This document shows, piece after piece, positions 2 to 47,120 of a stretch of DNA of 64,000 nucleotides. Position 1 is the stretch's first letter. Every line of letters starts with the position of its first letter. The translations under genes and the position numbers were made by a program. The stretch is taken from the NCBI GenBank assembly GCA_017458285.1, contig JAFTFU010000004.1, forward strand, positions 52,561 through 116,560. Reading direction: 5' to 3'. Source of the stretch: Clostridia bacterium. GTDB lineage: Bacteria > Bacillota > Clostridia > TANB77 > CAG-508. A model generated the notes under the pieces. It was not told where the DNA came from. It worked only from the letters and a program-made list of their open reading frames with translations, and did not search any database.

Positions 2-3000
2 ACAATTACTAAATTAGCTTATTCTTAGGCATCGTTAGCAGATACTGCTTTTACTTATCCAACTGTTTGGAATGGATATGAGTTACGTGCTACTACAAAA
101 TCTGCATTAAGAGACGCAATAGAAAAACAAGGAATTCATGAAGATTATTTACTTTGGGGTGGGCATGCTCTAGGTACTAACAGTTGGAGTCCAATTGATA
201 CAGTGTTAAATGATTATACTCGTGGAAATGGTTTTGCAGGTTTACCTGCTGCAAACATAACAGTTGAACACTCTACTAATGCAGGCTCTTCTTGGACTAC
301 AACTTCAGTATCAGATTTAGTAAAATGTAATTTAGTAACTAATGATTAGTCTCAAGTTAGAATTGTAGCAAGTGGAAATGTTCCTAATAATGCAAATCCT
401 CAATTGAGAATAACGATTAAATGTTCTGGTTCAACTTATTTTTAGTTAAAAAAGATTCATATTTTGATTAGTACGAGTGGATCATCAGGATGTAAAGTTA
501 CTATTAAAGGTTCTTTAAATTCTGCACCTACTAATTTTAATTAGACAATTTGTGATGATGTTGCTGTTACTGGGTGGAGTGGATGGAATTCTATTACTTG
601 TGATACAGTTGTAGGTGCAAATGATAGTCAAATTCATTCTTTACAATTTACTTTTACTTAGACAGGTGTTAGTTCTAGTTATGTTACATCGGGGTTCTGT
701 GTTTACAATATTTCTGGATATGGTTATATGAAACATACAGCTCCTTCACAATTAGCAAAATAGAGTCATGTTTATACCATAGATGGTAATGATAATGTAA
801 CTTTTCCAAATACAGGCTCTGTAATAATTAGTAAAACTCAAGATGCATCGGGAACAGCTGATAATAAACCAGCTTTAATTGTAGGTGGTCTTTCAACCGG
901 CTCTCATATTGAAATAGATTCAAATGAAATTCTTGCTAAATCTAATGGAACAACTCCTACAACATTATATTTACAAGATACTACTGGAACTGTCTCGGTC
1001 GCAGGTAGTGGAGGTTTAATTGTTTCAAATTTAACTGCATCTCAAGCAGTTTCTACAGACACAAATAAAAAATTGGTTTCTTCTAATCTTACTACAGCAG
1101 ACCCTTCAGCTTCTGGTTCAGGAATTACTTATATAGCAAGTATTTCTTAGAGCGCGATTGGTAAAATTACAGCTACTAAATCAACAGTAAGAAATGCTTC
1201 TACTTCACAAACAGGCGTTTTACAATTTACTGCAGCTAATACAAATACACAATTAAATACTTTAACTACCGGTAGTTCTACACCAGTAGATGCAGATTAT
1301 TATATTTCTCAATATGTTGGGGGAGGTACAACTACTACAACGTATCATCGTCGTCCAATGTCCGCACTGTGGGATTATATAAAAGGACATATTATTGACG
1401 ATTTATATTGGGCTAATATTAAAGTATAGGATAGTAGTAAGACTGATACTATTCCTACTTTTAAAACTATTTATTTTGGAAGTGTTGATCCTACTACAAG
1501 TGGAAGAGGTATATTAACATTCAGTTCTACATACCCTAATTATGGATTATGGTATTTTAATGATTCTACTGATGTTATTACTTTAGATGGCCATGGAAAA
1601 GCCAATAGTAAAACAGAAGCTGATTTAGCCATTAATGCTTTAGGTGCGGGTATTATTTCTACAAGAAATAGATATATACCTCATACTGGAAATACTACTG
1701 GTACAGTTGGTACAGCAATAAAACCTGTATATGTAGATGCTGGACAAATTAAAGCCAGCACTTCTACTATTGGAACTTTTGAAAAACCAATATATTTAAA
1801 CGCGGGCACCATTACTGCTTTAAATCCTGTTTGGCTATTAAGTGGTGGAACTGCAACTGCGAATAATGAAGATTTAAACGCTGCAAAATATAAAGTCATT
1901 GGAAATTATTATAGTGATGAAAATGCTAAATCTAAAACTATTTTAAATAGTCCTTTTGGAGCCGCTGCTTCTACTAATTGTTTAAGTTTTACCCTAAAAA
2001 CAGAAGCCTCTTTAGGCACAGGTACAACTTATCTTCGCTAGCTTTGGAGAAGTTATAATTCAGGAGTTGAAGCTGAAAGAACTTCTGCAAACAGTGGTTC
2101 TTCTTGGTCTACTTGGAGAACTAAAGTATTTAAAAATAGTGATGCTACTACTGCCGCTGGAAATAGTACAACACCAGTTTATGTAACTGCAAATGGTGCT
2201 GTTGCTACAGGTTATCCTTATTTAAGATATATTAATTCAACGGATGTTACAACTTATTCTGTAGATGAATTAGGAAAAACTGCAAGCATTGCATATATTA
2301 GAGCTACTGATGCTAATGCTCCTGTGTCAGGTCATATGATGTATATTAATGCTGGAATAGGACATATGGGAACTCCATTTTAGATTGGTATTCATGATAG
2401 TGATAATTTATATATTTATAAAAGATGGTATTCTTCTAGTGCATGGTCTGCTTGGACTAAGATGAATGCAGGACATGCAGACACTGCTTCACAAGTTTAT
2501 TCTACTCATACGTATCCAACAACTCGTTCATATATAGAATATCAACAAAATTAGTCTACTGGAAGTGGCAACGTTAGTTTAAGACACCATAATGCATTAT
2601 CAGTAAGTAGTAATATGGATACGACGAATACTTCAACAAGATGGACAGAATTATGGATTGGTAATGCAACTGCCTCTGGGACAGTTGGTAATAGTCAAGG
2701 TTGGTTAGCTCTTTATACTTCTGGAGTAAATTATACATAGATTTCCGCTTATGGAACTGGTAATAACAATTATTTTAATATTCCTAATTATTCAGGAACA
2801 GGTTATGCTCTTACTAGTTCAACTTTAACTAAAGGTTCAGCTACTAAAGGAATATATATTACTACAAATGGTCAAGCAGCAGAAATGTCTCATGAATTAA
2901 AAGCTACAGTTAATTCAGGAACTGAAAGTCGTTTAGCTTATTATTCAGCTGAGGGAACTATTTCTCCTGCTTCTCATATTTAGTATATTCCTACTCAAAA

Positions 3001-5977
3001 TGCAGAGTTAGGTACAACTAAAGGTTCAGTAAATGGTTTATTTATTTATGGTCCTGCTTATGGCAATGACACTGCTAATTTAGGAAGTGCTACGATTAAT
3101 GTATTTAGATATGGAGACCCTGGTCCTTAGATTAGATTTAGCACTGGATTAGGAACTGCTAATGCAGGAGCTGCAGAATCAAGCGCTATAATTTGGTCTG
3201 ATCATTCTTCTAGCATTGGAACAGATTAGTCTTTTCATTTTGTAGGATAGAATAATACATCTCATGCAGCTTCTAATGTTGGAGTTGTAACAAATACTTT
3301 TATTGGTAAAACACGTATATCTGCTGGTGTAAATTATGCTAATACTAATTATGTACTTTTTTCTAATGGTACAACAGGAATAAATGGATAGCTTTATTTG
3401 CAAGGCGCTTCTACAAGAGATACTGCACCTTCTTCTAACGATAATAGAGTTTTATATTTTACAGATTCAGCACGAAATGATTAGGGCCATATTTATTTTA
3501 GACATAATACTGCTGGTCAGCATTTAATGTATTTAAATACTTATTCTTCTGGCACTAAAGGAACTAGAGATCATATTGTATTAATTTCTGATACTGATAC
3601 TACAGATCCTCATTATATACAAATTAATTCTAGAATTAGCACTGGATTAAATATTAGTGGTACTAGAGGTTTTGCATATAATGCTGCTACCGCTGGAACG
3701 CATATTAGTGCGGCTGGCAATATACATATTACAGCAGCGTCACCTTATATTTAGTTTTATAATAATACTTCAGCATCTTATACGGGATATATTCAAGATA
3801 CAGCTGCTAATGGCATGGTTTTTAATCATGCAACAGTAGCAACGACCGCAGTTACCGCTTTAAGTCCTATTAATTCAAGTTTTAAACCTTAGTTTCAATT
3901 TGGAGGCTTAACTTATGTTAATGGAATATTAACTACTAATGGCTCTGCTTATATTAAAGGACGTGTTACAAGTTATGACTAGTGGAATATAATTTATTTA
4001 TCTAATATTACTAAAACAACAGCCCCCTCAAGTAGCACAGATGGAGGAATTATATTAAGAGATAAAGCAGGTACTAATTTAGCACTATTTCGAATTTGGG
4101 AAAATACCTCAATGGATAGATGTGCCAATATGTATGTTTATGGTAATAGCAATAATGCTGAAGTATCAATTTTTGCAAAAGCAGATGGTGATAGATATTT
4201 ACAGTGGACTGGAGGTATTATAAATCATACAGTTGAAGTCCGAGGACTTTTAAAGAGTACTAATTATTCTAATACTGTAACTATTGGTTCACAAAATGCA
4301 GGTTACACTCATATTTATAATAGTGCTAATATTCCTTTCATTTTTAATAAAAGTGTTTTAACTGCTGCGGGGGATTTAGGTGATACATCTTATCCTTGGC
4401 ATAATATTGTTTTAGGTAATTCTGCAGGAACAGCAAATGCTGATATTATTTTACATAGTTCTAAAGCTAATAATACACTGATTAGATTTTTAGTTAATAC
4501 TTCTAATGGTGATGGTCAAGGTATCCGCATTGGCGGCGGAGGATTAACCATTATTGGCGGTGGAGAATCTGCAGCAACAGTATAGTCTGGCACTGGTTAT
4601 GCAAGCGATGCAGAACAAATGCTTGTTACCAATGATTCGAGCATTAAATTTTATCCCAATCAATAGAGTGGTTATACTGCTTCAGCTTTAATTGAAATGA
4701 CTGCAGGTAGACTTTGGGTTGGAGTTAATGGAGATACTACAAGAGAGAATCAAATTTTAGTTCAGTCAGGCGCAGGACAATTATATATGTATAGCGCTGC
4801 TTCTACGACAGGAGCAAAGGGAATATATTTTCCTGCTCATGGAGATAATCCAGCAGGCTATATTGCTTATGTTGATTCAGAGCATAGAGTTTATTATAAT
4901 GGTAATTTTACAAGCCAAAGAGTTAAATTAATTGCAAATCAAGGTTCGCAAATTAATTCTGGAGTTTGGCTTAGAACTTGTATTGTTCAGAGTTATTAGA
5001 ATTATGCTAATTTTTAGATTAGATTAACTGGAGGATGGTCAACTGGTAGTCCAACAATAGCTACTATTGATGTAAATATGCGTAATGGTTTGGCTTCTAT
5101 GAAATTAGTTCATAGAGGATTTTTAGGAGTAATTGGTAAAGTAAAATTAGTTAAATTAGCAACTAATACCGCATATTTAGATGTTTATGTAAGAGAAAAT
5201 TCTAATAATACAGATTATTTTGGTCAATTTATTGGAAATGTCACTGTTACTCAAGATAATAATACAACTCATGGAACAACAAATGTTACTACTACAGATG
5301 TTACTGGTTTAGACGTTTTAGATTTAACAGTTGCAGTAGGAAATGCTTCAACACCAGTATATATTGATGCCACTGGTAATCCTGTAGCTTGCACCGCTTA
5401 TAATTCCGCAACAAATATTAGAGCTGCAACAGTTAATATTAACAATGATACAACTTCTAAATTATTTGTTTTAGGAGCAACTACTACTGGGTATACTTCT
5501 ATTTATAGAGAATCATCTGTATACATGCAAAACAATGTTCTTATGGGAGCTGCTTGGAACGACTATGCAGAATTCCGTCAATCAAAAGAAAGTAAAAAAA
5601 TTGAACCAGGTAGAGTAGTTTATGAAAATGGTGATGATACATTAAGTATGTCAAATGAGAGATTAATGCGTGGATGTAGTATTGTATCTGATACTTATGG
5701 TTTTGGCATTGGCGAATCTGAAGAGGCTCAACTTCCAATAGCCGTTTCTGGACGAGTATTAGCTTATCCCTATGAAAATAAAGAAGAATTTAAAACATAT
5801 ATTGGTTGGCCAGTTTGTTCTGGTCCAAATGGAACAGTTAGTATAATGACTGAAGAAGAAGAAATAAAATATCCAAGTCGTATTATTGGAACTATATCAG
5901 CAGTACCAGACTATGAGATTTGGCATGGTGGTGTTGATGTAATAGTTGACGGGCGAGTTTGGATTAAAGTGAGGTAA
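2..5977 (+). CDS. giant tail fibre / receptor-binding protein (5' end outside window; ~1991 codons here, dozens of sense TAG codons)
   Basis: Frame 2 stays open from nt 2 to TAA 5975-5977 if TAG is sense. This was checked codon by codon at 2-1500, 3750-4120 and 4580-5080. Track ORFs 3527, 4112, 4697 and 5078 are all in this frame. Composition is S/T/G/N-rich and fibre-like. The C-terminus (AAWNDYAEFRQ...AVSGRVLAY...DGRVWIKV) resembles the autoproteolytic intramolecular-chaperone domains of phage fibres. Confidence 0.8.
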
Positions 5978-7065: not shown

Positions 7066-7529
7066 TATGGTTTTATGTGATTGTTAAATTTATCTACCAC
7101 TCTTTTATGCAAGGCATCGCCAGCATGATTACCGCCTAAGCCTTTATAAGCAACATAATCTTCTTCAAACTATTCATATTCGTCAACTGTAATTATATGC
7201 TCTGGGTCTAATAAGAAAATACACTAATCTCTAAACTATTTTCCTTGGAGTGATAAAACACCAATAGTAAGATTTTCTACATTATTAGATAATACTTCTA
7301 TTTCTTCTTTCATTATTCTATCATTTTCATCTGATTTCTATTCTACTTTATCAATTTTTTCAGTTAATTCATCTACTATTTCTTCTCGCATTTCTTTCAT
7401 TCGTTCAGCTTTTACTTTATTAACACTTTCTTTTTCTAATTTAATGATATGTTTTGCCCATACAACAATTCCAGCTGCAATAATACCACATATCCACTAT
7501 AACCAATATTTTATAAAAATGTCTAACAC
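7065..7529 (-). CDS. hypothetical membrane-anchored coiled-coil protein
   Basis: GTG start at 7529, 4 nt after the RBS AAAGGAGGAGG. TAA at 7065-7067; 5 sense TAG. TM segment WICGIIAAGIVVW followed by a K/E-rich helix. Confidence 0.6.
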
Positions 7530-7604
7530 TTGTCCTCCTCCTTTCATTATCATATATTATCAAAATTAAATAAATTTAATTATACAAAATTACCCTAAAA
7601 TTTT

Positions 7605-15126: not shown

Positions 15127-16017
15127 CGTTTTTATCTGATGTTACCATCAGCACTGACTATATCTTCTATCTTACGATAGCCTTCCGCTTCGAGTATGTG
15201 CCTATCTCATACCCTACTCCCTTACATTCATCAGGGATAGTCGATACACTTTATTTTAGATATATTCGTTTTCTTCATATGCAATTTGCCATTCATCTTT
15301 ATAGAGCTTTTTTATTCGACCTAAACAACGACGAGAAATAAACTAATGATTACTTTCTTTAAAGAAATCTTGCATTTGTTTTTGAGTATCAAAATGATAT
15401 TCTTCTTTTGTATTTATATTTCTACATTTTACTTTTGTAGAATGTGGATTTTTATTTCCCATTTTACTTTGTCGCAATTTTTCTTTAATTATTTTCATTT
15501 CTTCATCTGTTTTATTTTTGTAAGTATTTCCGCCACATTTATACTCGGCATTAGTTTCATTATAGCCATTTTTAACACTATTATACCAAGCTATCCAATA
15601 ATGTTCTTTTGCGGTTAATTCTCGCTAAGAAGTAGCTGTATCTAATAGTTCTAATTTAAAATTATCTGGGCCATAATATCTAATTGCTCGTGCAAAATGA
15701 GTGTCTAATATATTATTTAAAGCATCATTCTTATGACGCTTCCATCGTTCTTCAATGGGACGAATACTCTATCCTATATATACCTTATTATTTTTTATAT
15801 TTGTGATTTTATAAACGAACATATTAACATTCTCCTTTTATATTATTATCGTTCATTTTATTTAAAAAATGTTCGACACAATTTAAGGAAAAATGTCCTA
15901 AAATCTTAGCACGGTCTCATCCACTTGGGACCTAACCGTTAGCATACGGACCACCTGCGGCCGCACACACCCTCGGGCGAGGTTCAAAAGGTTTTACATG
16001 AGCTGTAGTTTCCGCTT
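15127..16017 (-). mobile_element. group I intron (T4 td-like, IA2-type) in nrdD
   Basis: The 5' exon ..CAUGGGU pairs with the intron guide GCUCAUG (7 bp, U.G at the splice site). Core elements GCUAACGGU and GAUAUAGUCAGUGC are present. The intron ends ..GAUAAAAACG. An in-frame TAA lies 7 codons into the intron. Confidence 0.8.
15256..15822 (-). CDS. intron-encoded GIY-YIG homing endonuclease
   Basis: MFVYKITNIKNNKVYIG(TAG)S; 189 codons, 3 sense TAG, TAA 15256-15258. Confidence 0.8.
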
Positions 16018-17340: not shown

Positions 17341-17940
17341 TTACATGTTGTCCTTAGACTGCTCATAATGTTCAAGTTTTTTAAGTGTTTTAAAATGTTC
17401 TAATTCTCTTTTAATAATTTGTTCACTTTTATATAAATCTCTAGTATTATTATTCACTAAAATGTAATAATCGAAATCTATATATTTAAAATCTTTTAAA
17501 TCTGAATCATATCTTCGTAAAATTTCTTTTATATCAGGATACTTTTCTCTTTGTAAGCTACGAATTAATCTTTCTTTATCATCGCATCTAACATATACTA
17601 TTTGAGTATTTAAATTAGGATTTTTAAGTAAAGTTCTGGCTGCGGCAGGATTAGCACTTAAAACATTAATTTGAGAATAAACCAAATCTTCATATCGAGT
17701 GCCATAATACCATCCATTAAAATTTTGCCATTCGGCAAGTTTTCCACTATCTATTTCTTGAAGAAATTCTTCTCTAGAAACAAAATGATAAGGATGACCT
17801 TCTTTTTCTCCTGTTCGTTGAGGGCGAGAAGAAACTTGAGGAACTACATGAAAATCATTAGGGTATAACATTAATAAATGGTCAATAATAAAATTTTTAC
17901 CAGAACCGCTTTCACCAATAAAAACAATTAAATCTTTCAT
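17341..17940 (-). CDS. guanylate kinase-like nucleotide monophosphate kinase
   Basis: P-loop GESGSGKN and a SRPQRTGEKEGHPYHFVS guanylate-kinase signature-like segment. Confidence 0.7.
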   Translation of the reverse strand: MKDLIVFIGESGSGKNFIIDHLLMLYPNDFHVVPQVSSRPQRTGEKEGHPYHFVSREEFLQEIDSGKLAEWQNFNGWYYGTRYEDLVYSQINVLSANPAAARTLLKNPNLNTQIVYVRCDDKERLIRSLQREKYPDIKEILRRYDSDLKDFKYIDFDYYILVNNNTRDLYKSEQIIKRELEHFKTLKKLEHYEQSKDNM

Positions 17941-19318
17941 TCAATACTTTCTCCTTTATACCTTTCTGTTTGTAAAGTTAAATCTCCATCTTTATCAATA
18001 TCTATAATATGATATAATTGATGTCCCCCAGAAGTAGCATATTTTTTAGTAATAAAAGTATCTCCTGAACGAATGCCTTGCACCATTATCATACTACCCC
18101 TATTAAACCAGCTTAATTCTTGACGATGCTTTATACCATCTTCTCCTATTTCAGAAATAGTTTTATCAAATAAAGCAAAATACTCTTTTCTAAATTTAAC
18201 ATTTACTACTCCATCAGTAGTTAAAATGGTGGCAATTCCTTTAGTTTTATTTTTAGCAATACAAGTGCCGCAAATTTTAAAGAGTTTAAACATATTTATA
18301 GTTTTTTTACCTTTTGTAAAACTCTTATCTATAATTGGCTCTTCTGGTAATGAATAAAAATTGCTTAATCCATATTTACCCATATTTACAGTAGATAATT
18401 CATGAGGGTGATGATAAAAACAAAGAACTTCCATTTCCCAAGAAGAATAATTTCCAGAAGCATATTTATTCCAATCTAATTTAAAGATTTGATCATTTAA
18501 TTGCTGAAGAACTTCATTACCAGATTCTTTTAACCAATCTCTAAAAATATCCATTACAGATTGATAATACTTATCCCAAACCTTCGCTATTAAAATATTA
18601 TTTTCTGAAATTATATCATCTTTATCAATTTTAGTTAAAAAATCTACTGCACGAGTATCTAATTGATAATAGCCTGGTAATTTATCATTTTTACAAACTG
18701 CCTTTAAATATCTATTAAATTCATAAACACTAAAAGCAAATTGTCTTTCTTCTGTGTCTCTTGGAATTAAATTCATTTTATTTAATGTTGGCATATTTTG
18801 AAGTGTTAAACGAGATTTTTTATCACAGGTTTGCCAAATAAACCACGCCATTGCTAATTTTCTATCCATCATTTTATCAAAAGCTCCTGCTTTAATTAAT
18901 GATACCATAGATTGCTTTTTTGGGCTAATTTTTTGATAAAAATCTTTAATAGATATGTATGGTCTATTTGCAATAATTTCACGAACTAAATCATCATTGA
19001 CGTTTAACAATGCTTTCATTCCAAATAGAATTTGATGATTTTTTACATCTGGTTTAAATCCAAAATCAGATTGATTAATATCAACTAAGCTTACATTAAT
19101 ACCAGCATTAATAATTTCATTTAACGCTTTTGCGATTTTACCATAATCAGTGCTTACAGTTTTATCATCTTCAATATCACTATTTTCATCTTCTAATGAA
19201 CCACTGTTTACAACTAAGCAAGCAGTATCCCAATAAATTGGGTCAAAAGAAGTTGCAAGATATAAAGTTTGAACACCTACAAAACTATATGCTAAACTAT
19301 GAATTGTTGAAAAACTAT
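17937..19318 (-). CDS. dnaE: DNA polymerase III alpha (DnaE-like), exon 3
   Basis: The first 2 nt complete codon TAT, giving ..PQMG-Y-SFSTIHSLAYSFVGVQTLYLA (the G-Y-x-F-x-K-S-H-x-x-A-Y region of DnaE). TGA at 17937-17939. Confidence 0.8.
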
Positions 19319-20462
19319 CTGTAATATGTCTTTATATTTCTATAAAGCATAGACTATATTTTACTGTATACAAATACAGAACACCGTTTCCCAATGCGTA
19401 TCAATAACATCAGTACTCTCTGTCTCACCAGAGATAGTCGTTACAGGTTTCTTAAAGGATATTGATAATTGTTATTATGAAAGCACATACCATTATTAAT
19501 TCTACGAATTGTCTCTTTGGATGCTGTGGTTGCTTCTGAAATTTCTTTATATGTTAAATTAGTATTTAAAAGCAGTTCTTGGACTTGAATTGCCCTCTGT
19601 TCGTTTGCACTAATTTTTCTAATGGGGTATGAAGGATATAATCCTTTTCTTAACGTACCAGCATTAATTTTTTTAACTGTTGAATATCCCATATTTAGTT
19701 GTTTAGAAATTTCATTTAAAGATAAAGTAGAATTTAATAATAGGTCAATAAGTTCATCATAATCTTCGTCAGATTTATAATATTTACAAAGAGGATATTG
19801 TTCTTTATCATCAAAAAAATAAGTTCCTGTATTAATACTTGAAATAAAACTTGCGCTTACCCTATATTTATTTTCTATTTCATAATATGGAATTTTATCT
19901 TTTAATAGTTGTTTAATATCTTGAACCTCTTCATTAGATAATATTAAAGAATGTTTACGGGAACCACCATAATCCCTATTATATCCTTGACCGTTGCCGC
20001 AAAATGTATTTAATTCTTTTATCCAATATTGCTCTCTTTTATTAACTTCTTCCTAATTTAATGTATATAAAATTTCTAATACTTCAATATCAAAATTTTC
20101 TATACCATATTGTCTAATTTTTTTATGAATTAAATCATTATAAGAAGAAGCCTTGCTATTAAAAGCGCAAGATTTATGCTCTCTTATCCTTCTTTGTAAA
20201 TTATTTGTCTATCCAACATATTTGTGTTGATTAATTTTATTTGTATAGCAATAAATATAATTCATTTTTATTCTCCTTTATATAAACTATTGCCATACAT
20301 CCTTTAAGACTTCCCACGGGATTATCATGGCAACAGCTGGGATACATTTTATATCCTCGCTGATACTTTAGATTTCCCCGTTAGCATTTAATAACTTTTG
20401 TCCCAAAGTATTAAATACCCCGCTGATAAACGGAAAGATGTTTAGGGGCAAGTTTTCCATTC
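19319..20462 (-). mobile_element. group I intron 2 in Pol III alpha
   Basis: The exon ..AUGGGGU pairs with intron GCCCC. The T of the apparent TGA stop is the last exon nucleotide. Core elements UGCUAACGGGGAAAUCU and CCCGUGGGAA are present, and the 3' end is ..AUUACAG. Phases add up: 1228 + 1382 = 870 codons. Confidence 0.8.
19441..20265 (-). CDS. intron-encoded GIY-YIG homing endonuclease with C-terminal HTH
   Basis: MNYIYCYTNKINQHKYVG(TAG)T; 275 codons; RBS AAAGGAGAA. Confidence 0.8.
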
Positions 20463-21690
20463 ACCCCATCTGAGGACCTGCGCCATATTTCCAAACATAT
20501 GCACCTAATTGAGGACTTTTTGCTTGTTCAAGAACCTTTTGATGTAATGCAGGAATTTTATCCATTTGTTTTTTACCCACTACTTTACGAGCAGAATTTG
20601 CTTCTGCTAATGTAAATCCGCAAATATCTTTATCCATTAACATTAACATCAATTGTTCTTGGCTTGGTGGCACGCCATATGATGATTTAAAATAAGGTTC
20701 TAAGGTTTTTTGTTCATTAGGAGTTAATCCCCAACGATTCATTTCATCATACCATAATTGAATATTATTTTTAAATTTAAAATATTTATCAATAGGACGC
20801 TCTTCTTCTTCTCCCATAAGGCGCAACAATCCATTTGCGTCACTCATTTCTGTGATTGAACGAGGCCGCAAACGTTTAGCCGCTTTAACGCCTTCTTGAG
20901 AATCAAATTGAAAAATATTTATAACTGAAACATTATCAAGCGCATCCCAAATTCTTTCATCATTTTTTGGTAAAACATTAGGATGAAGATATTTATCATA
21001 AACTTCTTTTAAAGATAATTCCGGTTCAATTTGACCATCTTGCTGTAAAAATTGAATAGTTTGGACAATTTTATCTTGAACTTCTGTTACTAAGAAATCA
21101 TATTTAACATTACCCATATATTCAATATCGTGAAGATTCCATTGAGTAATAATTTCGCCTTTTGGAGTTTTCATAAAAGCGCAATGTTCAAATGGATCAT
21201 CACTAAATAAAACAATTCCAGAAGCATGAGAAGAACGCTTATTATGAATACCTTCAATAGCTATAATAATTTCAGCTAAGCCTGGATAATTGTTTACTTC
21301 ACGAACGAATGAAGCTACTGGTTTTCTTCCTTTTTCAGGATTACCAAATAACACATCTTTTACAGGCCATAAAAATCCTCGTTCTTCTGGTACTAAAGAA
21401 GCCATATATTGAGCTTGATCTACATCAATACCGTCTTTATAAATTTCTGCTACTTCTTCGTGCCCACTTGGAGTAATTTTATTTATATATCCAGCTCCAG
21501 GACCTCTATAACCCCTACAAGCTGTTAAAATTGCTGATTTAGTAGTTTCAGTTCCAAAAGTAGCAATTCGTGTACATCCAAAGATTTTTGCCCATTCTGG
21601 AACATCATCATTAAAAGTAGCACTTCTTTCTTGAGCAATTTTATTAATAATGGTTTTAATTTTAGAAGGACAAACATCTATATCAATATC
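20463..21690 (-). CDS. dnaE: DNA polymerase III alpha, exon 2
   Basis: Begins DIDIDVCPSKIK.. (catalytic Asp motif). No TAG. Confidence 0.8.
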
Positions 21691-22707
21691 CGTTATTTAT
21701 TGGACTATATCTTCTATAACTAATTGTTATAGGACTGCGCTACGGAATAGTGCCTATCTCTATTCCTCTTGAAATTATATTTCATTTAGTCTCTACACTC
21801 CAATAAAATCCTTTATATAAAGTTTTATTTTTTATTGCTTTATTTAAGCCAGAATGTCCAGTTAGTTGTAAATAATCTAATACAGCGGTTTTGGCATTAA
21901 AAACTCTTAATAAATTCCAATCTTTATCATACATATAGACTTTTTTACCGTTTACTGCTTTATCCCCTTTTTTACCATACATACCATTTTTTTCGCCAGA
22001 AACAGCTAAAGACATTTTTTTACGGTATTCTAAAGTTTTCATGTAATCTGTATTACGATTATTTTTAATTTTATTTTTTGTTTCTTCTGTTAAATGAGCT
22101 CCATAACGAGGGTTATTAGGACCAGAATATTTAATACTCATTTTTTCTGAATATAATTTTCTCTATTCTTCAGACCATCCAGCAGTTGTATTACCGCCTT
22201 CTCCACCCTCATGGATATTATAAAAATTTTTATCTTTTACGGCATTAAAAACTTTTATAAATTCTTTTTCTTTCTAATTATTTTCTTGCTCATTAGAAGA
22301 AATAAATAAAATTTCTTTTTTAAAATTTTCTTTACCATATTTATTAATAGCTAATTTAATTAAATTTCCACTACCTAAATAATCATCGTTTAATTCACCA
22401 TGATGTTTTCCTATATATTTTTTTCCATTAATTAAATTAGTAGTTAAATAAATATAATATTTTTTCATATAAATCACCCTTTCATTGCTTTATGAAAAAA
22501 GTGATATTGACATTGACTGACTTTGACCAAGATTTTATTAAAGCACGGTATTATGAGCCTAACCGCTTGCGGCCGCACACTCTCTTAGTCAGCTGATTCG
22601 TGTATTTTTATACCTTATTTTGCTGATACCGTTAGCCTATTAAAATAGACACCCCTTGGCAGGGTTCACAGTCTTTTTTTACAACTCGGCAATATCAATA
22701 TTAGACT
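21691..22707 (-). mobile_element. group I intron 1 in Pol III alpha
   Basis: The exon ..GAACUCGGU pairs with intron GCCGAGUU (8 bp, U.G at the splice site). GGCUAACGGU core and a GCGGCCGC hairpin are present. The intron ends ..AAUAACG. Splicing gives RVELG-DIDIDV, matching the canonical R-V-S-M-P-D-I-D-I-D. Confidence 0.8.
21782..22468 (-). CDS. intron-encoded GIY-YIG homing endonuclease
   Basis: [22 protein letters not shown]. Track ORFs 22274 and 21782 join in frame through 2 sense TAG. RBS AAAGGGTGA. Confidence 0.75.
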
Positions 22708-24084
22708 ACCGAGTTCAACTCTATCTTCATTAAGATATCTAAAGAAAGGCAAATCCCATTCAATAGGATCTAACTGAGTAATACCCATTAAATAATGATT
22801 TAAAGCTGCACAAGAAGAACCTCTACCTGCGCCAATAGTAGAACCGCACTCCCAAATTAAATTAATATAATGTTGAAGAGTATTAGGGTAACGAAACATA
22901 TTTGTTTCAAGCTTTTCACTAATAATACTTTTTACACGAGCCTCTTCTTCTAATTCAGTAAAATATCGTTCAGCTTTTGGAGAATAGCAAATTCCCAATT
23001 CATACATTTTTTCAATACATTGATTTACCCAATAACGATTTTGAATATCATCATCATGTAACATTTGACTTAAATGAGGATATTTAGGATTATCTTCTCC
23101 AACGCCATTAACAGTCATCCAATAAGATTTAGGATATTCTTTTACTTCTACGCTTGGCACATCTTGTTTGTGGAACAAAGAATATCTTGAAATTTTATTA
23201 TAAATTTCTAAAGAATTTTTCATAACTATTGATGCAAATTCTTCATCATTATCAAAAGTAATTGTTAAATTCTTTAATACTTCATCAGGAGACATAAGAT
23301 AAGCATATTTATAAAATAAATCTACTTCTCGTTCTCCTTCTTTAGAATTAAGATATGCTTTATGAACTTGTCTATCTTCTTTTGTTAAATAATGACTATC
23401 TGTTCCAACCGTCATTTTAATATTATATACGTTAGCTATAGAACGAAGAATTTGATTAACTCTAATTTGGTCGTTAGAAGGTGCAGGCGCACATTCAATA
23501 TAAAAATCATCACCAAATAAATTTAAACAAAATTTTAGAAATTCTTCTATTTTTTGATAATAAATAGTTGCATTAGAGATATCATCTACTTCTATGCAAT
23601 CTTTATAAGCTATAGCTAATTGACTTAATTCTCCACCAATACAAGCTGTTGTTGCAATTAGATGACCAGGAAATTTATTTACTACTTCTACTAATTCAGA
23701 TTTTAAAGTAGGAACTCTTTCCATTTTTCTATCTACATAAGAATTCATCCAAGCGCGAGAACTTAATTCTCGTAATGCCCTATGACCAATAGCATCTTTA
23801 GCAATTAAAATAAAATGATAATATTTTTGGCCGTTATCTCTTGTATCAGTTAAATAAATTTCATTACCTAAAGCTAATTTAAAATCTGGATTTCTTTCTT
23901 GTACTTTAAGCATATACTTTTCAGCAGCTATATGAGCAGATAATACTTCATGATCAGTAATGGCTATTCCCATTAATCCCATGTCTATAGCTTTGTCAAT
24001 AAGCTGCTCTGGTGTATTTATACAATCTACCAGCCGCAGATTTGAGTCGGTAGTATGGTTATGATTATTAAAATATGTATTCAT
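22708..24084 (-). CDS. dnaE: DNA polymerase III alpha, exon 1 (PHP domain)
   Basis: NNHNHTTDSNLRLVD..GIAITDHEV PHP motifs. 459 codons, no TAG. Ends at GGU. Confidence 0.85.
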
Positions 24085-35074: not shown

Positions 35075-36084
35075 CATGTTATCTTATGTTTCCATAAGCA
35101 CTGACTATCTTTTACTTGTAGATATATCTACAAGGAGACCATTTCGAAGTGCGTATCAATAGCACCCCTACTCCTCCGCCCAAAAGGCAAAGAGGATAGT
35201 CGATACAGGTTAATTGTGTATTAATAAATCTGTTAAAGTATAATTTTCATTATTCAAAATAATTAAAGGAATATTATGTTTTTTACAATATTCTATCTTC
35301 ATCTAATCGTGCTTTTGAAGTGTTTCAAAACCATCACTCCAGCTCCCATTAGGCTATTCATAATGCTATTTTCCATTATACTCAATTAAATGTGATAGTT
35401 TTCCATTTTTAAATATGGCAAAATCAAAACGCAATGCTCGTATATCTTTTAAATCTGAAAATGTATATTGTGTGGCAAATTCTATTTTATTATCTATTAA
35501 CATTTTGGTAATTTTTTGTTCATTAAAACTATGAACACATCCACAACTTTTAATTAAACCTTCACGTAAATGCTAACCACTTGTAATAAATATATTACCA
35601 CAATATTTACATTGACATTTCCACATTGCTTTTAAGTTTTTACTTCCAGCAAAATCTATTACTTTAATTCCATCATTTTCAAAATCAATCATATTTTTTA
35701 TATTTTTAGATTCTTTAATTTTACAGCCACAGCTTTTTGTATGCCCTGACTTTAAATTACGAGTATCTACATTGGTTTCATTGCCACAATCACATAAGCA
35801 ATGCCATTTACCACCTTTAATATAATATAAAGGAGTTAAATATCCAAACTTCTAATTTGTTAAATCTTGACGAGGTTTTGAATTTCTTATTTGTTTTTCC
35901 ATATAATAATTCCACCTTTCATTATTATATAAAAAACGTTTCAATATCTTTAACAGATTTTGACACAATTTTTCCCACGGGATTACCATATTTTATAAAC
36001 TTAGGTTTCCCCGTTAGCATCATCTATAATCATAGATAATACCCCGTTGATGAGACGGAAAAATCTTTCATTGGCAGATAACCT
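35075..36084 (-). mobile_element. group I intron in the ThyX-like gene
   Basis: The exon ..CUGGU pairs with intron GCCA. The T of the apparent TAG is the last exon nucleotide. Core elements UGCUAACGGGGAAACCU, CCCGUGGGAA and GAUAGUCAGUGCUUAUGG are present. The intron ends ..GAUAACAUG, like T4 td. Confidence 0.75.
35210..35902 (-). CDS. intron-encoded homing endonuclease: zinc-ribbon repeats plus PD-(D/E)xK (Vsr/DUF559-like) nuclease
   Basis: DLTN(TAG)KFGYL..CLCDCGN..KSCGC repeats, then RFDFAIF..LIEYNGK(TAG)HY. 231 codons. The stop lies inside the 3' ribozyme core. Confidence 0.7.
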
Positions 36085-44806: not shown

Positions 44807-45790
44807 CATTTATTCTTATGTTTCCATAAGCACAGACTATATCTTACCTGCGGCCGCAGCCACAAGAACGCCCATTTCAAGTTGCGTGCTAATAGCAACC
44901 TTACTCCTCCGATACGAGGATAGTCGTTACAGGATTAGATGTTTTTCCAAGTTTGATATTGGACTACTCTTTTTATTGTATTTCGTGTGCATTTCCCTAA
45001 ATATAAAGTATATATTTCACTAATAGATTTATTTTCTTCTTCGGCTAATCTGCGAATTTCTTTAACATCGGATTTTGTTAATTTTGCTTTATTTTTACCT
45101 TTTCTTTCTACTTTAGAAGAAATATTTCTAATCATAGATGTATCAACATTCTACCAAGTGTTTCCTCTGTAGGCTTTGCAAAAAGCATCATAGCTAATTT
45201 CATCTGCATACATCTTATAAACGTCGGCAGGAGATATATTTTGAAGAAAAATCATTTCTCTAATATTTAAAACTTGTTCTTCATTTAATCTCGCTTTAAT
45301 ATTCTTTGAACCACTTGTATAATCAAGAGGAGTTTCTTCTGCTCGTAGAATATTATATCCTTTTTCTCTATTTAAAGCATCGTAATAATCTATCCAATAC
45401 TATTCTCTAATTAAAAGCTCTGCATCGGTCAAAGTATCACAATCTTCAATAATTTCAAAATCAAAATTTTCAAATCCATATTTTCGCAATGCACGAATAA
45501 TAGGTCTATTGTTGCCTTTATTTATCTCATATCTGTATTCACGCAATCTTTTTGCTAAATTTACAGATTTACCTATATATACTTTATCATTTAATTTATT
45601 AGTCCATTTATATATCGCTCTCATTTTAATCATCCTTCCCACGGGATTGCCATATCTAAAAAGACTTAGGTTTCCCCGTTAGCATATTTTTTCTACTTTA
45701 TATGAGTTCCAAGTGGAGCACATAAATAAAGTCTGTCCAAAAATATACCCCAGTGGCGAACTGGAAAAGGCGTAACAGGCACTTTTACAT
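44807..45790 (-). mobile_element. group I intron 2 in gyrB (splits the DADVDG|AHI motif)
   Basis: The exon ends ..GAUGGU. The intron ends ..GAAUAAAUG. Core elements UGCUAACGGGGAAACCU and GAUAUAGUCUGUGCUUAUGG are present, with a CUGCGGCCGCAG hairpin. The P1 pairing is weaker (about 3 bp). Confidence 0.75.
44935..45624 (-). CDS. intron-encoded GIY-YIG homing endonuclease
   Basis: MRAIYKWTNKLNDKVYIGKS. Track ORFs 45400 and 44935 join in frame through 2 sense TAG. Confidence 0.75.
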
Positions 45791-46036: not shown

Positions 46037-47120
46037 CATGTTTATCTTATATTTCTATAAGCACTGACTAACTCTTCACTCCGGTTTGTCAAACCATCAT
46101 CGTGTCCTCTATTTCCAATCACGTATCAATAGTGATTGTACTCTCCGTCTCACCGGAGATAGTCGATACAGCTTATTTTATATCTTTATAAGTTTGTCTC
46201 GTTATAGCATTATATACAGTACTCCAAGCTCTATCTGGAGCGTATTTTTGCCAAATCTATTTAGGACTTATTCCATTATCATAATCATATCTCATTTGTT
46301 TCACTTGTTCTTCGGTGAAACATTTTTTATTGTTTGCGGCTACTTCGGAAGAATTTGCTTTTGCATTGTGTGAATGCCAATATTTATTTTCTTCAGTATG
46401 ATACTCTGGATAAATATTTTTCCAAGTATCAAACCACCAAACCTTCTAAAGACCTCTTTTTGAAATTTTATCTTTATATTCTTCATAAACTATTTTGAAT
46501 GGAATATGAGCATTATAACATTCTCTAATATATTTTACATCTTCCTCATTTAATAATGCTCGACCATTTTTTGAACCAACCTAACTCCTGTTTGGGTTTT
46601 CGTCTCCGCCTAGAGTAGCATTATATCCATTGATATAAGAATTATAATAATTTATAAAGAACTTTTCCATCTAATCAAGAAGTTCTTTAGAATATTCTTC
46701 TGGAGATAATATTGCGATAATTTCATAATCAAAATTATCAAAACCATATTTTCTTACTGCTTGATGAAACTGACTATTATAATCATTTGCTTTATCATTA
46801 TAAACTGAAGATTTATGATTATATTGACGTCTTTCTATATCAACGCTCTATCCAATATAACATTTATGATTTATTTTATTTTCATATTTATAAATTCCTA
46901 TCATATCACTCTCTCCTTTCATTAGAATATAAGGGAGATACTGATATGATTTACTGGTTTTGTCCTAAAGATATAAAATCTTGCCACGGGATTGCCTTCG
47001 CCTAAACATATTTTGACATATATGTGTAACGGTCAGGTTTCCCCGTTAGCTTTACCTGCGGCCGCAGGTAAAACCCCGTTGATGAAGCGGTAAAAAGGAT
47101 TAGGGCAATAGTTTTCACTT
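46037..47120 (-). mobile_element. group I intron 1 in gyrB (splits the EG|DSA motif)
   Basis: The exon ..GAGGGU pairs with intron GCCCU. Core elements GCUAACGGGGAAACCUGACC, CCCGUGGCAA and GUUAGUCAGUGCUUAUAG are present, with a CUGCGGCCGCAG hairpin. The intron ends ..GAUAAACAUG. Confidence 0.8.
46173..46904 (-). CDS. intron-encoded GIY-YIG homing endonuclease
   Basis: MIGIYKYENKINHKCYIG(TAG)S. 244 codons; RBS GGAGAGAG. Confidence 0.8.

Follow-up and report, generated by a model that had tools for sequence, protein, structure and literature searches.

In the 64,000-nucleotide (nt) window analysed here, taken from an assembly of a Clostridia bacterium (contig JAFTFU010000004.1, hereafter C101, positions 52561–116560), the gene for a YorL-like DNA polymerase III alpha subunit (dnaE; minus strand, 24084–17937) consists of three open stretches with DnaE-type domains, with two inserts between them. 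These inserts are, with high confidence, two mobile phage group I introns of IA type (having P7.1 and P7.2), residing in the dnaE of a phage contig on which TAG is recoded, and both splicing and homing are proposed for them. Joining the exons (1377 + 1228 + 1382 nt) gives a single frame of 1328 amino acids (aa) with zero internal stops, as had been predicted from the sequence beforehand, and over the whole 3987 nt the exons contain neither stops nor frameshifts. Every coordinate and sequence detail of that prediction proved correct, an agreement well outside what chance could produce. The presence of two group I introns is supported by homology across the joins, by covariation, and by presence and absence of the introns in relatives.

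The polymerase gene and its two joins

The spliced protein is a member of polymerase family C, with PHP, a palm carrying two catalytic Asp, fingers and HhH all found in order by Pfam. Exon 1 contains PHP (81 bits) and positions 18–100 of the DNA_pol3_alpha profile, which resumes across the join at positions 103–259 in exon 2, together with DNA_pol3_finger, while exon 3 contains HHH_6 (60 bits). Among Protein Data Bank sequences searched with phmmer, Thermus aquaticus (Taq) DnaE aligns with an expectation value (E) of 3e-56 and without a gap at either join. At the first join (marked by a slash), NEDRVELG/DIDIDVCP lies opposite NPERVSMPDIDTDFSD, including the two catalytic Asp, the core being VELG/DIDIDV opposite VSMPDIDTDF. 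At the second, PQMG(Y)SFSTIHSLAYS lies opposite FANYGFNKSHAAAYS, with a core of MG(Y)SFSTIHSLAYS opposite ANYGFNKSHAAAYS.

Uninterrupted homologues were found by tblastn among annotated phages, in the form of SPbeta YorL and the genes of Enterococcus phages H1 and VRE9, Geobacillus GR1 and Phass-1; these match residues 4–1321 (99%) as a single piece, at 35–38% identity. In a four-way protein alignment, both joins fall within conserved columns with no gaps. The alignment to DnaE homologues that had been suggested as a check on the original prediction is therefore ungapped over both joins, and its reading of the 1328-aa product agrees with Taq DnaE and with the intronless phages. The coordinates and the Taq alignment likewise agree with the proposal that intron 1 splits the catalytic Asp motif, R-V-E-L-G/D-I-D-I-D-V. 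Intron 2 is in phase 1, as proposed: the 3′ end of exon 2 is a T (20463), the first base of a split Tyr codon that is completed by AT (19318–19317), restoring P-Q-M-G-Y-S-F-S-T-I-H-S-L-A-Y in accord with the DnaE alignment.

The second splice site had also been described as hidden inside an apparent TGA stop. The exon T is indeed followed by intron GA, but the arrangement is an ordinary one, as other introns at this site read TGA (Enterococcus phage EF1) or TAA (viral contig L072). An early in-frame stop in the unspliced RNA is usual for phage introns. The apparent TGA at intron 2 merely halts translation of unspliced RNA, and is incidental.

Phages of this kind tolerate split replication genes, and the inserts could in principle be free-standing endonuclease insertions, leaving dnaE as three separately translated fragments that assemble. 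This is very improbable, given that neither exon 2 nor exon 3 opens with a start codon; in-frame starts first appear at 21405 and 19019, ~95 and ~100 codons downstream, so that proteins translated separately would be without the catalytic D-I-D and without Y-S-F-S-x-x-H. Exon 2, moreover, ends on one base of a split codon, and the open reading frames (ORFs) within the inserts are flanked by conserved, covarying ribozyme helices, with ORF-less 300-nt versions occurring at the same site.

Group I cores and covariation

The two inserts carry the hallmarks of group I introns. The classical R element (GUNNNGACUA) and S element (AAGAUAUAGUC) are matched by GUGUAGAGACUAA and AAGAUAUAGUCC in intron 1, and by CUGUAACGACUAU and AAAAUAUAGUC in intron 2, and the core strands of both resemble those that Rfam aligns in the intron of SPbeta bnrdE. 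Both introns and all of their homologues have a terminal G at the 3′ end. The P1 helices put forward in the original prediction are present: 8 base pairs between exon AACUCGGU and guide GCCGAGUU in intron 1, and GGGGU with GCCCC in intron 2. P7.1 and P7.2, a trait of the IA2 subgroup, are present between P7 and the 3′ strand of P3, and covary in both introns.

Covariation was assessed in 29 homologous introns, 17 of intron-1 type and 12 of intron-2 type. A P3–P7 pseudoknot and a P4–P6 domain emerge from these sets, with P3 fully compensatory and P4, P5, P7.1 and P7.2 supported; P6 and P8 hairpins, each in its own sequence, were seen by inspection in every homologue. In the intron-1-type alignment, 98.6% of cells are paired and compensatory changes occur at 19 pairs, with a covariation of 0.287 against 0.102 in shuffled alignments (0 of 500 shuffles reached the observed value) and 32–40% of cells paired in slid controls. 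One P3 pair, for instance, is AU in 5 sequences, UA in 5, CG in 3, GC in 2 and GU in 2. The intron-2-type alignment is 90.3% paired, with 22 compensatory pairs and a covariation of 0.429 against 0.162 shuffled (0/500).

The U.G pair at the 5′ splice site occurs in 17/17 intron-1-type and 12/12 intron-2-type sequences, and in both types the P1 pairs next to it covary with synonymous exon changes. In the intron-1 type, P1 follows the third base of a Leu codon through CUC/GAG, CUA/UAG, CUG/CAG and CUU/AAG (CG 7, AU 2, GC 2, UA 1). P3 was placed wrongly by MAFFT in the intron-2 set, and duplex energies were used there instead, with the strands of each intron set against strands swapped between introns: own against swapped values were −5.9 and −3.8 kcal/mol for P1, −6.1 and −1.65 kcal/mol for P3, and −2.9 and −1.0 kcal/mol for a loop–loop contact (permutation p ≤1e-4 in each case). 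This contact, between the loop of a hairpin A and that of P7.2, covaries as UGCC/GGCA and UGCU/AGCA in the intron-1 type, and as UAUCA/UGAUA, ACCA/UGGU, ACUAA/UUAGU and GCUA/UAGC in the intron-2 type. P10 of intron 2 varies with the 3′ exon, being AACU/AGUU in the window and AAGAA/UUCUU in EF1, where the change accompanies a Ser codon TCT instead of AGT. Together, the P1, P3, loop–loop and P10 evidence fixes both splice sites to the nucleotide. A single-sequence fold of the ORF-less intron of contig L152 yields P3, both hairpins that follow it (A and B), P4, P5, P6, P7.1 and P7.2.

Three earlier helix candidates were dropped, as the homologues show other covarying pairs: GACUAA at about intron position 110 as P7, AGAC..GUCU as P2, and GCAUU as the 3′ strand of P3 in intron 2.

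Inteins are well known from DnaE-family polymerases, and reports of group II introns in phages have recently appeared, so inserts of either kind deserve mention. The chance that either accounts for the dnaE inserts is nonetheless negligible: the inserts are out of frame with the exons, with stops 0–13 codons past the 5′ splice site; no reverse transcriptase or maturase is present and no Rfam group II family gives a hit; and the group I hallmarks (U.G, terminal G, P7 strands, J8/7) are all in place.

Relatives, site occupancy and mobility

The closest parallel is found in Enterococcus phages EF1 and EF5 (GenBank MF001358, MF001361), whose polymerase III alpha introns occupy the same two sites, to the nucleotide and phase. 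The EF1 gene is annotated in pieces, with an entry reading ‘HNH homing endonuclease’ and ‘Phage intron’, and comparison with a 98%-identical relative with an intact gene, H1, reveals two insertions that coincide exactly with the two positions and phases of the window and have homologous cores. One lies before D-V-D-I-D, D-(I/V)-D-I-D in the two systems together, and the other after ATGGGGT, whose final T opens the Tyr codon of G-Y-S-F; the downstream exon continues with AT.TCT.TTC. The site-2 endonucleases are 44% identical (window intron 2 ORF against that of EF1 intron B; E 3e-54). In contrast to the window, EF1 has an HNH endonuclease in place of a GIY-YIG one in its site-1 intron, the code is standard with no TAG in the ORFs, and the polymerases are only ~41% identical.

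Orthologous introns are also widespread in viral contigs. A conserved 22-mer of intron 1 retrieved 30 of these, most with an intron at the same dnaE site, and site-1 orthologues comprise EF1 and about 20 IMG/VR contigs, including ORF-less introns of ~300 nt in L152 and L143. For intron 2, a 15-mer scan led to site-2 introns in L037, L072, L084 and L113, and to relatives in other genes; orthologues at site 2 are those of EF1, L037, L072, L084, L152 and L143. The 15-mer GCTAACGGGGAAATC marks mostly unrelated cyanophage coding sequence in viral contigs, with ~20 of 120 loci being introns, and the combined pattern GCTAACGGGGAAATC N{20,50} AATCCCGTGGGAAGT found no match. A blastn search of annotated phages with the 5′ cores returned just two hits for that of intron 1, both to Lactobacillus phages, and no hit for that of intron 2.

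Occupancy was compared among contigs whose polymerases are 50–68% identical. Only site 1 is filled in L148, L125, L135, L140, L142, L144 and L146, only site 2 in L072 and L037, and both in L152 and L143. At site 1 the cargo is HNH in some introns, GIY-YIG in others and absent in the rest. The original prediction had regarded the two introns as independent invasions, citing different 5′ core strings and unrelated GIY-YIG ORFs. The strings do differ (GCUAACGGU and UGCUAACGGGGAAA), and independent invasion holds, because relatives have one, both or neither intron and the site-1 cargo varies among them. The ORFs, however, are not unrelated: both are assigned to GIY-YIG, that of intron 1 on a Pfam score below the cut-off, and their catalytic domains align (E 9e-8, with 34% identity over 85 aa). 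The difference is confined to the C-terminal parts that bind DNA, with NUMOD3 in intron 1 and a helix-turn-helix (HTH) in intron 2.

Further insertions were observed in dnaE near residues 648–652, 746–747 and 832 (numbering of the window protein) in L074/L095, L084, L137, L153 and L068. The gene is therefore a multi-site intron hot-spot across the whole phage group.

Endonuclease ORFs and the recoding of TAG

Contig C101 (120,761 bp, 30% GC) is assigned to a bacterial bin of 217 contigs, 2.36 Mb and 28% GC. Under the standard code, 34% of it is covered by ORFs of 150 aa or longer; reading through TAG raises this to 87%. It is the only contig of the bin to need such read-through, all others using the standard code, and so C101 is a phage contig, either co-binned with or infecting the bacterium of the bin. 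TAG encodes an amino acid on C101, almost certainly glutamine: in the intron 2 ORF, the first TAG falls opposite the Gln of YIGQTNN in the EF1 endonuclease, and Phass-1, a homologous phage, is classified under ‘Caudoviricetes code 15 clade’. Comparison of NrdD with solved structures places the TAG positions at variable residues, and is uninformative on the assignment to Gln. No tRNA genes at all were detected by ARAGORN on the window or on C101.

The distribution of TAG separates the polymerase from the intron ORFs. In dnaE there are 0 TAG against 52 CAA/CAG, the window-wide TAG share being 24%, and each intron ORF contains exactly two in-frame TAG (codons 65 and 102 in intron 1; 19 and 71 in intron 2), ends in TGA or TAA, and stays open only when TAG codes for an amino acid, a condition on which the original prediction is silent. 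Elsewhere in the window (2–5977, plus strand), reading through TAG gives a 1991-aa frame with 25 TAG codons, open at the window edge. Its product is probably a large virion or tail protein, and the frame illustrates heavier recoding of late genes than of replication genes.

With TAG read as Gln, as all Pfam scores given for these ORFs presuppose, the intron 1 product scores 34.1 bits for NUMOD3 (cut-off 20.4) and 24.6 for SegE_GIY-YIG (cut-off 25), and its blastn matches are to Seg-like genes of T4-type phages. The intron 2 product scores 43.4 bits for GIY-YIG (above the 22.6 cut-off) and 44.5 bits for a Trp_repressor-like HTH. The 3′ ends of both ORFs overlap ribozyme strands, namely the P6 3′ strand, J6/7 and P7; in intron 1 it is the last codons that run through the P6 3′ strand, J6/7 and the P7 5′ strand, and in intron 2 the stop codon lies within the J6/7 element GUAACGACUA.

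An unusual 5′ architecture

According to Rfam alignments of introns in L031 and SPbeta bnrdE, the canonical order of the 5′ half is P1, P2 (with or without P2.1), P3, J3/4 and P4. The dnaE intron class departs from this IA2 order, in that the covariation-supported 5′ strand of P3 directly follows P1, and the adjacent hairpins A and B come next, ahead of the UAA of J3/4. The altered order of strands may make the class invisible to the Rfam group I model RF00028, which worked on a canonical IA2 intron run as a positive control (SPbeta bnrdE, 92.4 bits) and on another phage intron, in L031 (81 bits). A 2025 survey has noted that Rfam and GISSD models may miss phage intron variants (PMC11878797).

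It is possible, if rather doubtful at present, that the dnaE introns and their dozens of relatives in viral contigs constitute a structural group I subgroup that has not been formally described. No description of the P3-after-P1 architecture was found in the literature, the library searched being incomplete and hence no proof that none exists. If such a subgroup is real, introns of this type would be systematically overlooked in phage and metagenome annotation. L031 itself apparently contains two neighbouring group I introns (7072–7291 and ~7300–7600, minus strand), only one of which is seen by Rfam, at 81 bits; the other belongs to the class with hairpin A and GCUAACGGGG, and is missed.

Several observations weigh against the interpretation of the dnaE inserts as active introns. 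RF00028 gave no hit at the gathering threshold in the whole window, nor in 18800–23000 with E up to 10, nor in ORF-less homologues; when the ~300-nt intron of L152 is scanned by itself, the score is 14.3 bits, over its 3′ half only, against a cut-off of 50. P7 (GACUA/UAGUC) is invariant in all sequences, and so provides consensus support with no covariation. The GIY-YIG score of the intron 1 ORF (17.3 bits) is under the PF01541 cut-off of 22.6, ARAGORN detected no CTA-anticodon or suppressor tRNA on the contig or in the bin, and the ligation of the exons is a prediction from sequence.

These points bear on the suggestion that the introns have decayed, with ribozymes that no longer splice and a dnaE pseudogene on a defective or mis-assembled phage contig. 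Splicing is a prediction, both endonuclease ORFs look stop-broken under the standard code, and the Rfam hit is missing. Decay nevertheless has only a very slight probability. The exons are intact throughout, all core helices are intact and fit the covariation of the family, and the ‘stops’ in the ORFs are all TAG, a codon read through contig-wide. The Rfam miss, for its part, affects the whole class including the ORF-less members, and RF00028 is also without a hit in EF1. An Rfam group I scan had been suggested as a check on the introns; it was run, and would wrongly refute them, the model being blind to this class. Two intact, mobile group I introns thus remain the favoured account.

Feature coordinates and further introns in the window

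Table 1. Exons, intron parts and further introns located in the window.
Feature	Position	Strand	Details
dnaE exon 1	22708–24084	-	459 codons; PHP and start of polymerase III alpha palm; 3′ end R-V-E-L-G
Intron 1	21691–22707	-	Group I, 1017 nt, phase 0; directly before catalytic Asp codons (D-I-D)
Intron 1 P10 guide	22691–22696	-	GAUAUU can pair with 3′ exon GAUAUU; read off the letters only
Intron 1 P1 guide	22683–22690	-	GCCGAGUU; pairs with exon AACUCGGU (22715–22708); U.G at splice site
Intron 1 P3 5′ strand	22667–22673	-	GACUGUG; RNAalifold and pair counts
Intron 1 hairpin A	22651–22665	-	Loop UGCC; upstream of J3/4; RNAalifold and pair counts
Intron 1 hairpin B	22635–22650	-	Upstream of J3/4 (UAA) and P4; RNAalifold and pair counts
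Intron 1 J3/4 and P4 5′ strand	22626–22634	-	
Intron 1 P5 and extension	within 22531–22634	-	Extension includes GCGGCCGC hairpin
Intron 1 P4 3′ strand	22544–22551	-	
Intron 1 P6 5′ strand	22531–22543	-	
Intron 1 ORF	21782–22468	-	P6 loop; 228 aa; predicted Seg-like GIY-YIG and NUMOD3 homing endonuclease
Intron 1 P6 3′ strand	21798–21811	-	
Intron 1 GUGUAGAGACUAA with P7 5′ strand	21786–21798	-	
Intron 1 P7.1	21771–21783	-	
Intron 1 P7.2	21744–21766	-	Loop GGCA pairs with hairpin A loop
Intron 1 P3 3′ strand	21733–21739	-	CGCAGUC
Intron 1 P8	21714–21732	-	
Intron 1 J8/7 and P7 3′ strand	21702–21713	-	AAGAUAUAGUCC
Intron 1 terminal G	21691	-	
dnaE exon 2	20463–21690	-	1228 nt; starts D-I-D-I-D-V; rest of palm and fingers
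Intron 2	19319–20462	-	Group I, 1144 nt, phase 1; within conserved fingers motif G-Y-(S/G)-F-x-x-x-H
Intron 2 P10 guide	20451–20454	-	AACU
Intron 2 P1 guide	20445–20449	-	GCCCC; pairs with exon GGGGU
Intron 2 P3 5′ strand	20437–20442	-	AACAUC
Intron 2 hairpin A	20420–20433	-	Loop UAUCA
Intron 2 hairpin B	20384–20417	-	
Intron 2 J3/4 and P4 5′ strand	20376–20383	-	
Intron 2 P5 region	20323–20365	-	
Intron 2 P4 3′ strand	20315–20321	-	
Intron 2 P6 5′ strand	20299–20308	-	
Intron 2 ORF	19441–20265	-	P6 loop; 274 aa; predicted GIY-YIG endonuclease with HTH repeats
Intron 2 P6 3′ strand	19451–19460	-	
Intron 2 CUGUAACGACUAU with P7 5′ strand	19434–19446	-	
Intron 2 P7.1	19418–19433	-	
Intron 2 P7.2	19393–19411	-	Loop UGAUA pairs with hairpin A loop
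Intron 2 P3 3′ strand	19380–19385	-	GGUGUU
Intron 2 P8	19364–19379	-	
Intron 2 J8/7 and P7 3′ strand	19352–19363	-	AAAAUAUAGUC
Intron 2 P9	19330–19347	-	GAAA loop
Intron 2 terminal G	19319	-	
dnaE exon 3	17937–19318	-	1382 nt; AT of Tyr codon, then S-F-S-T-I-H-S-L-A-Y; HHH_6 and C-terminal region
Further intron of the dnaE-intron class	15127–16017	-	
Further intron of the dnaE-intron class	35075–36084	-	
Further intron of the dnaE-intron class	44807–45790	-	
Further intron of the dnaE-intron class	46037–47120	-	

Six introns of the class are thus present within the 64-kb window (Table 1). Of the four outside dnaE, one lies in nrdD, at FSTMG/CRTANG, one in a gene with ITAPLYW before the insertion, and two in a gyrB-like gene, at the TOPRIM motifs E-G/D-S-A and D-A-D-V-D-G/A-H-I; three of the four carry GIY-YIG ORFs with TAG codons. 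Palindromes of the sequence GCGGCCGC (NotI), often inside CTGCGGCCGCAG, occur in peripheral hairpins of several introns (at 22569, 47058, 44850, 15957 and others), despite a genome GC of only 30%. In dnaE intron 1 the palindrome sits in the extension of P5; in gyrB intron a and in the nrdD intron it is hairpin B that holds it, and in gyrB intron b it is P8. Homologous introns in other contigs differ in sequence at these hairpins.

Proposed splicing and homing

Each intron would fold after transcription, with P1 pairing the last exon bases to the internal guide and placing the U.G at the 5′ splice site, which an external guanosine would then attack. P10 would align the 3′ exon, allowing the freed exon end to attack after the terminal G, and the resulting mRNA would encode one polymerase of 1328 aa. 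The GIY-YIG enzyme encoded in the P6 loop is predicted, by analogy with enzymes of the I-TevI type, to cut intronless dnaE alleles of co-infecting relatives, and repair of the cut allele would copy the intron in. Since dnaE has no TAG and each endonuclease ORF has two, the endonucleases would be made only while TAG is decoded, presumably later in infection.

Known systems and significance

Group IA2 introns in phage genes for ribonucleotide reductase (RNR) and thymidylate synthase (TS), such as those of SPbeta bnrdE and bnrdF and of T4 td, nrdB and nrdD, with I-TevI-type GIY-YIG endonucleases, are self-splicing. The introns of the window resemble them in their 3′ halves, which run AACGACUA, P7.1, P7.2, GAAAC, P3 3′ strand, P8, AAGAUAUAGUC and P9, and also in having an ORF in a peripheral loop, a DNA-metabolism gene as host, and insertion at a conserved motif. 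They differ from the bnrdE intron in the 5′ strand order, and in the RF00028 score that goes with it (14.3 bits or none).

Group I introns are also known in the DNA polymerase genes of phages SPO1, Bastille, Twort and Pf-WMP3 (PMC3428280; PMC11878797). These likewise self-splice, carry homing or nicking endonucleases and interrupt a replicative polymerase gene where it is most conserved, but the polymerases are of family A (Pol I-like) rather than the DnaE/YorL-like family C, and the endonucleases are mostly HNH. In TGA-recoded ‘Agate’ phages, a recoded endonuclease of a group I intron has been described in an early gene, and recoding was proposed to delay endonuclease production until late infection (Borges et al., bioRxiv 10.1101/2021.08.26.457843). 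Agate and the window share a host gene compatible with the standard code and recoded stops in the intron endonuclease ORF; they differ in that TGA is recoded to Trp in the former and TAG to Gln in the latter, where two introns of one gene, and six across the window, follow the pattern.

The dnaE introns are a familiar kind of selfish element, with their own orthologues already annotated in GenBank phages, and current understanding is not overturned by them. What they add is of moderate interest, and lies in an architecture invisible to Rfam, in recoded cargo, and in the density of six introns within 64 kb. For annotation, the practical consequence is that gene callers report three polymerase fragments and two ‘broken’ endonuclease genes, where the correct product is one DnaE-type polymerase of 1328 aa, and such phages therefore need annotation that is aware of both introns and genetic code 15. 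The standard covariance model overlooks a common class of phage group I introns, ORF-less members included, in line with recent complaints of poor coverage of phage introns by Rfam and GISSD (PMC11878797), and the intron-1-type and intron-2-type alignments could seed a better model. Lastly, a host gene free of TAG, with endonuclease ORFs that use it, provides a clean second example for the idea that recoding delays the production of selfish cargo.

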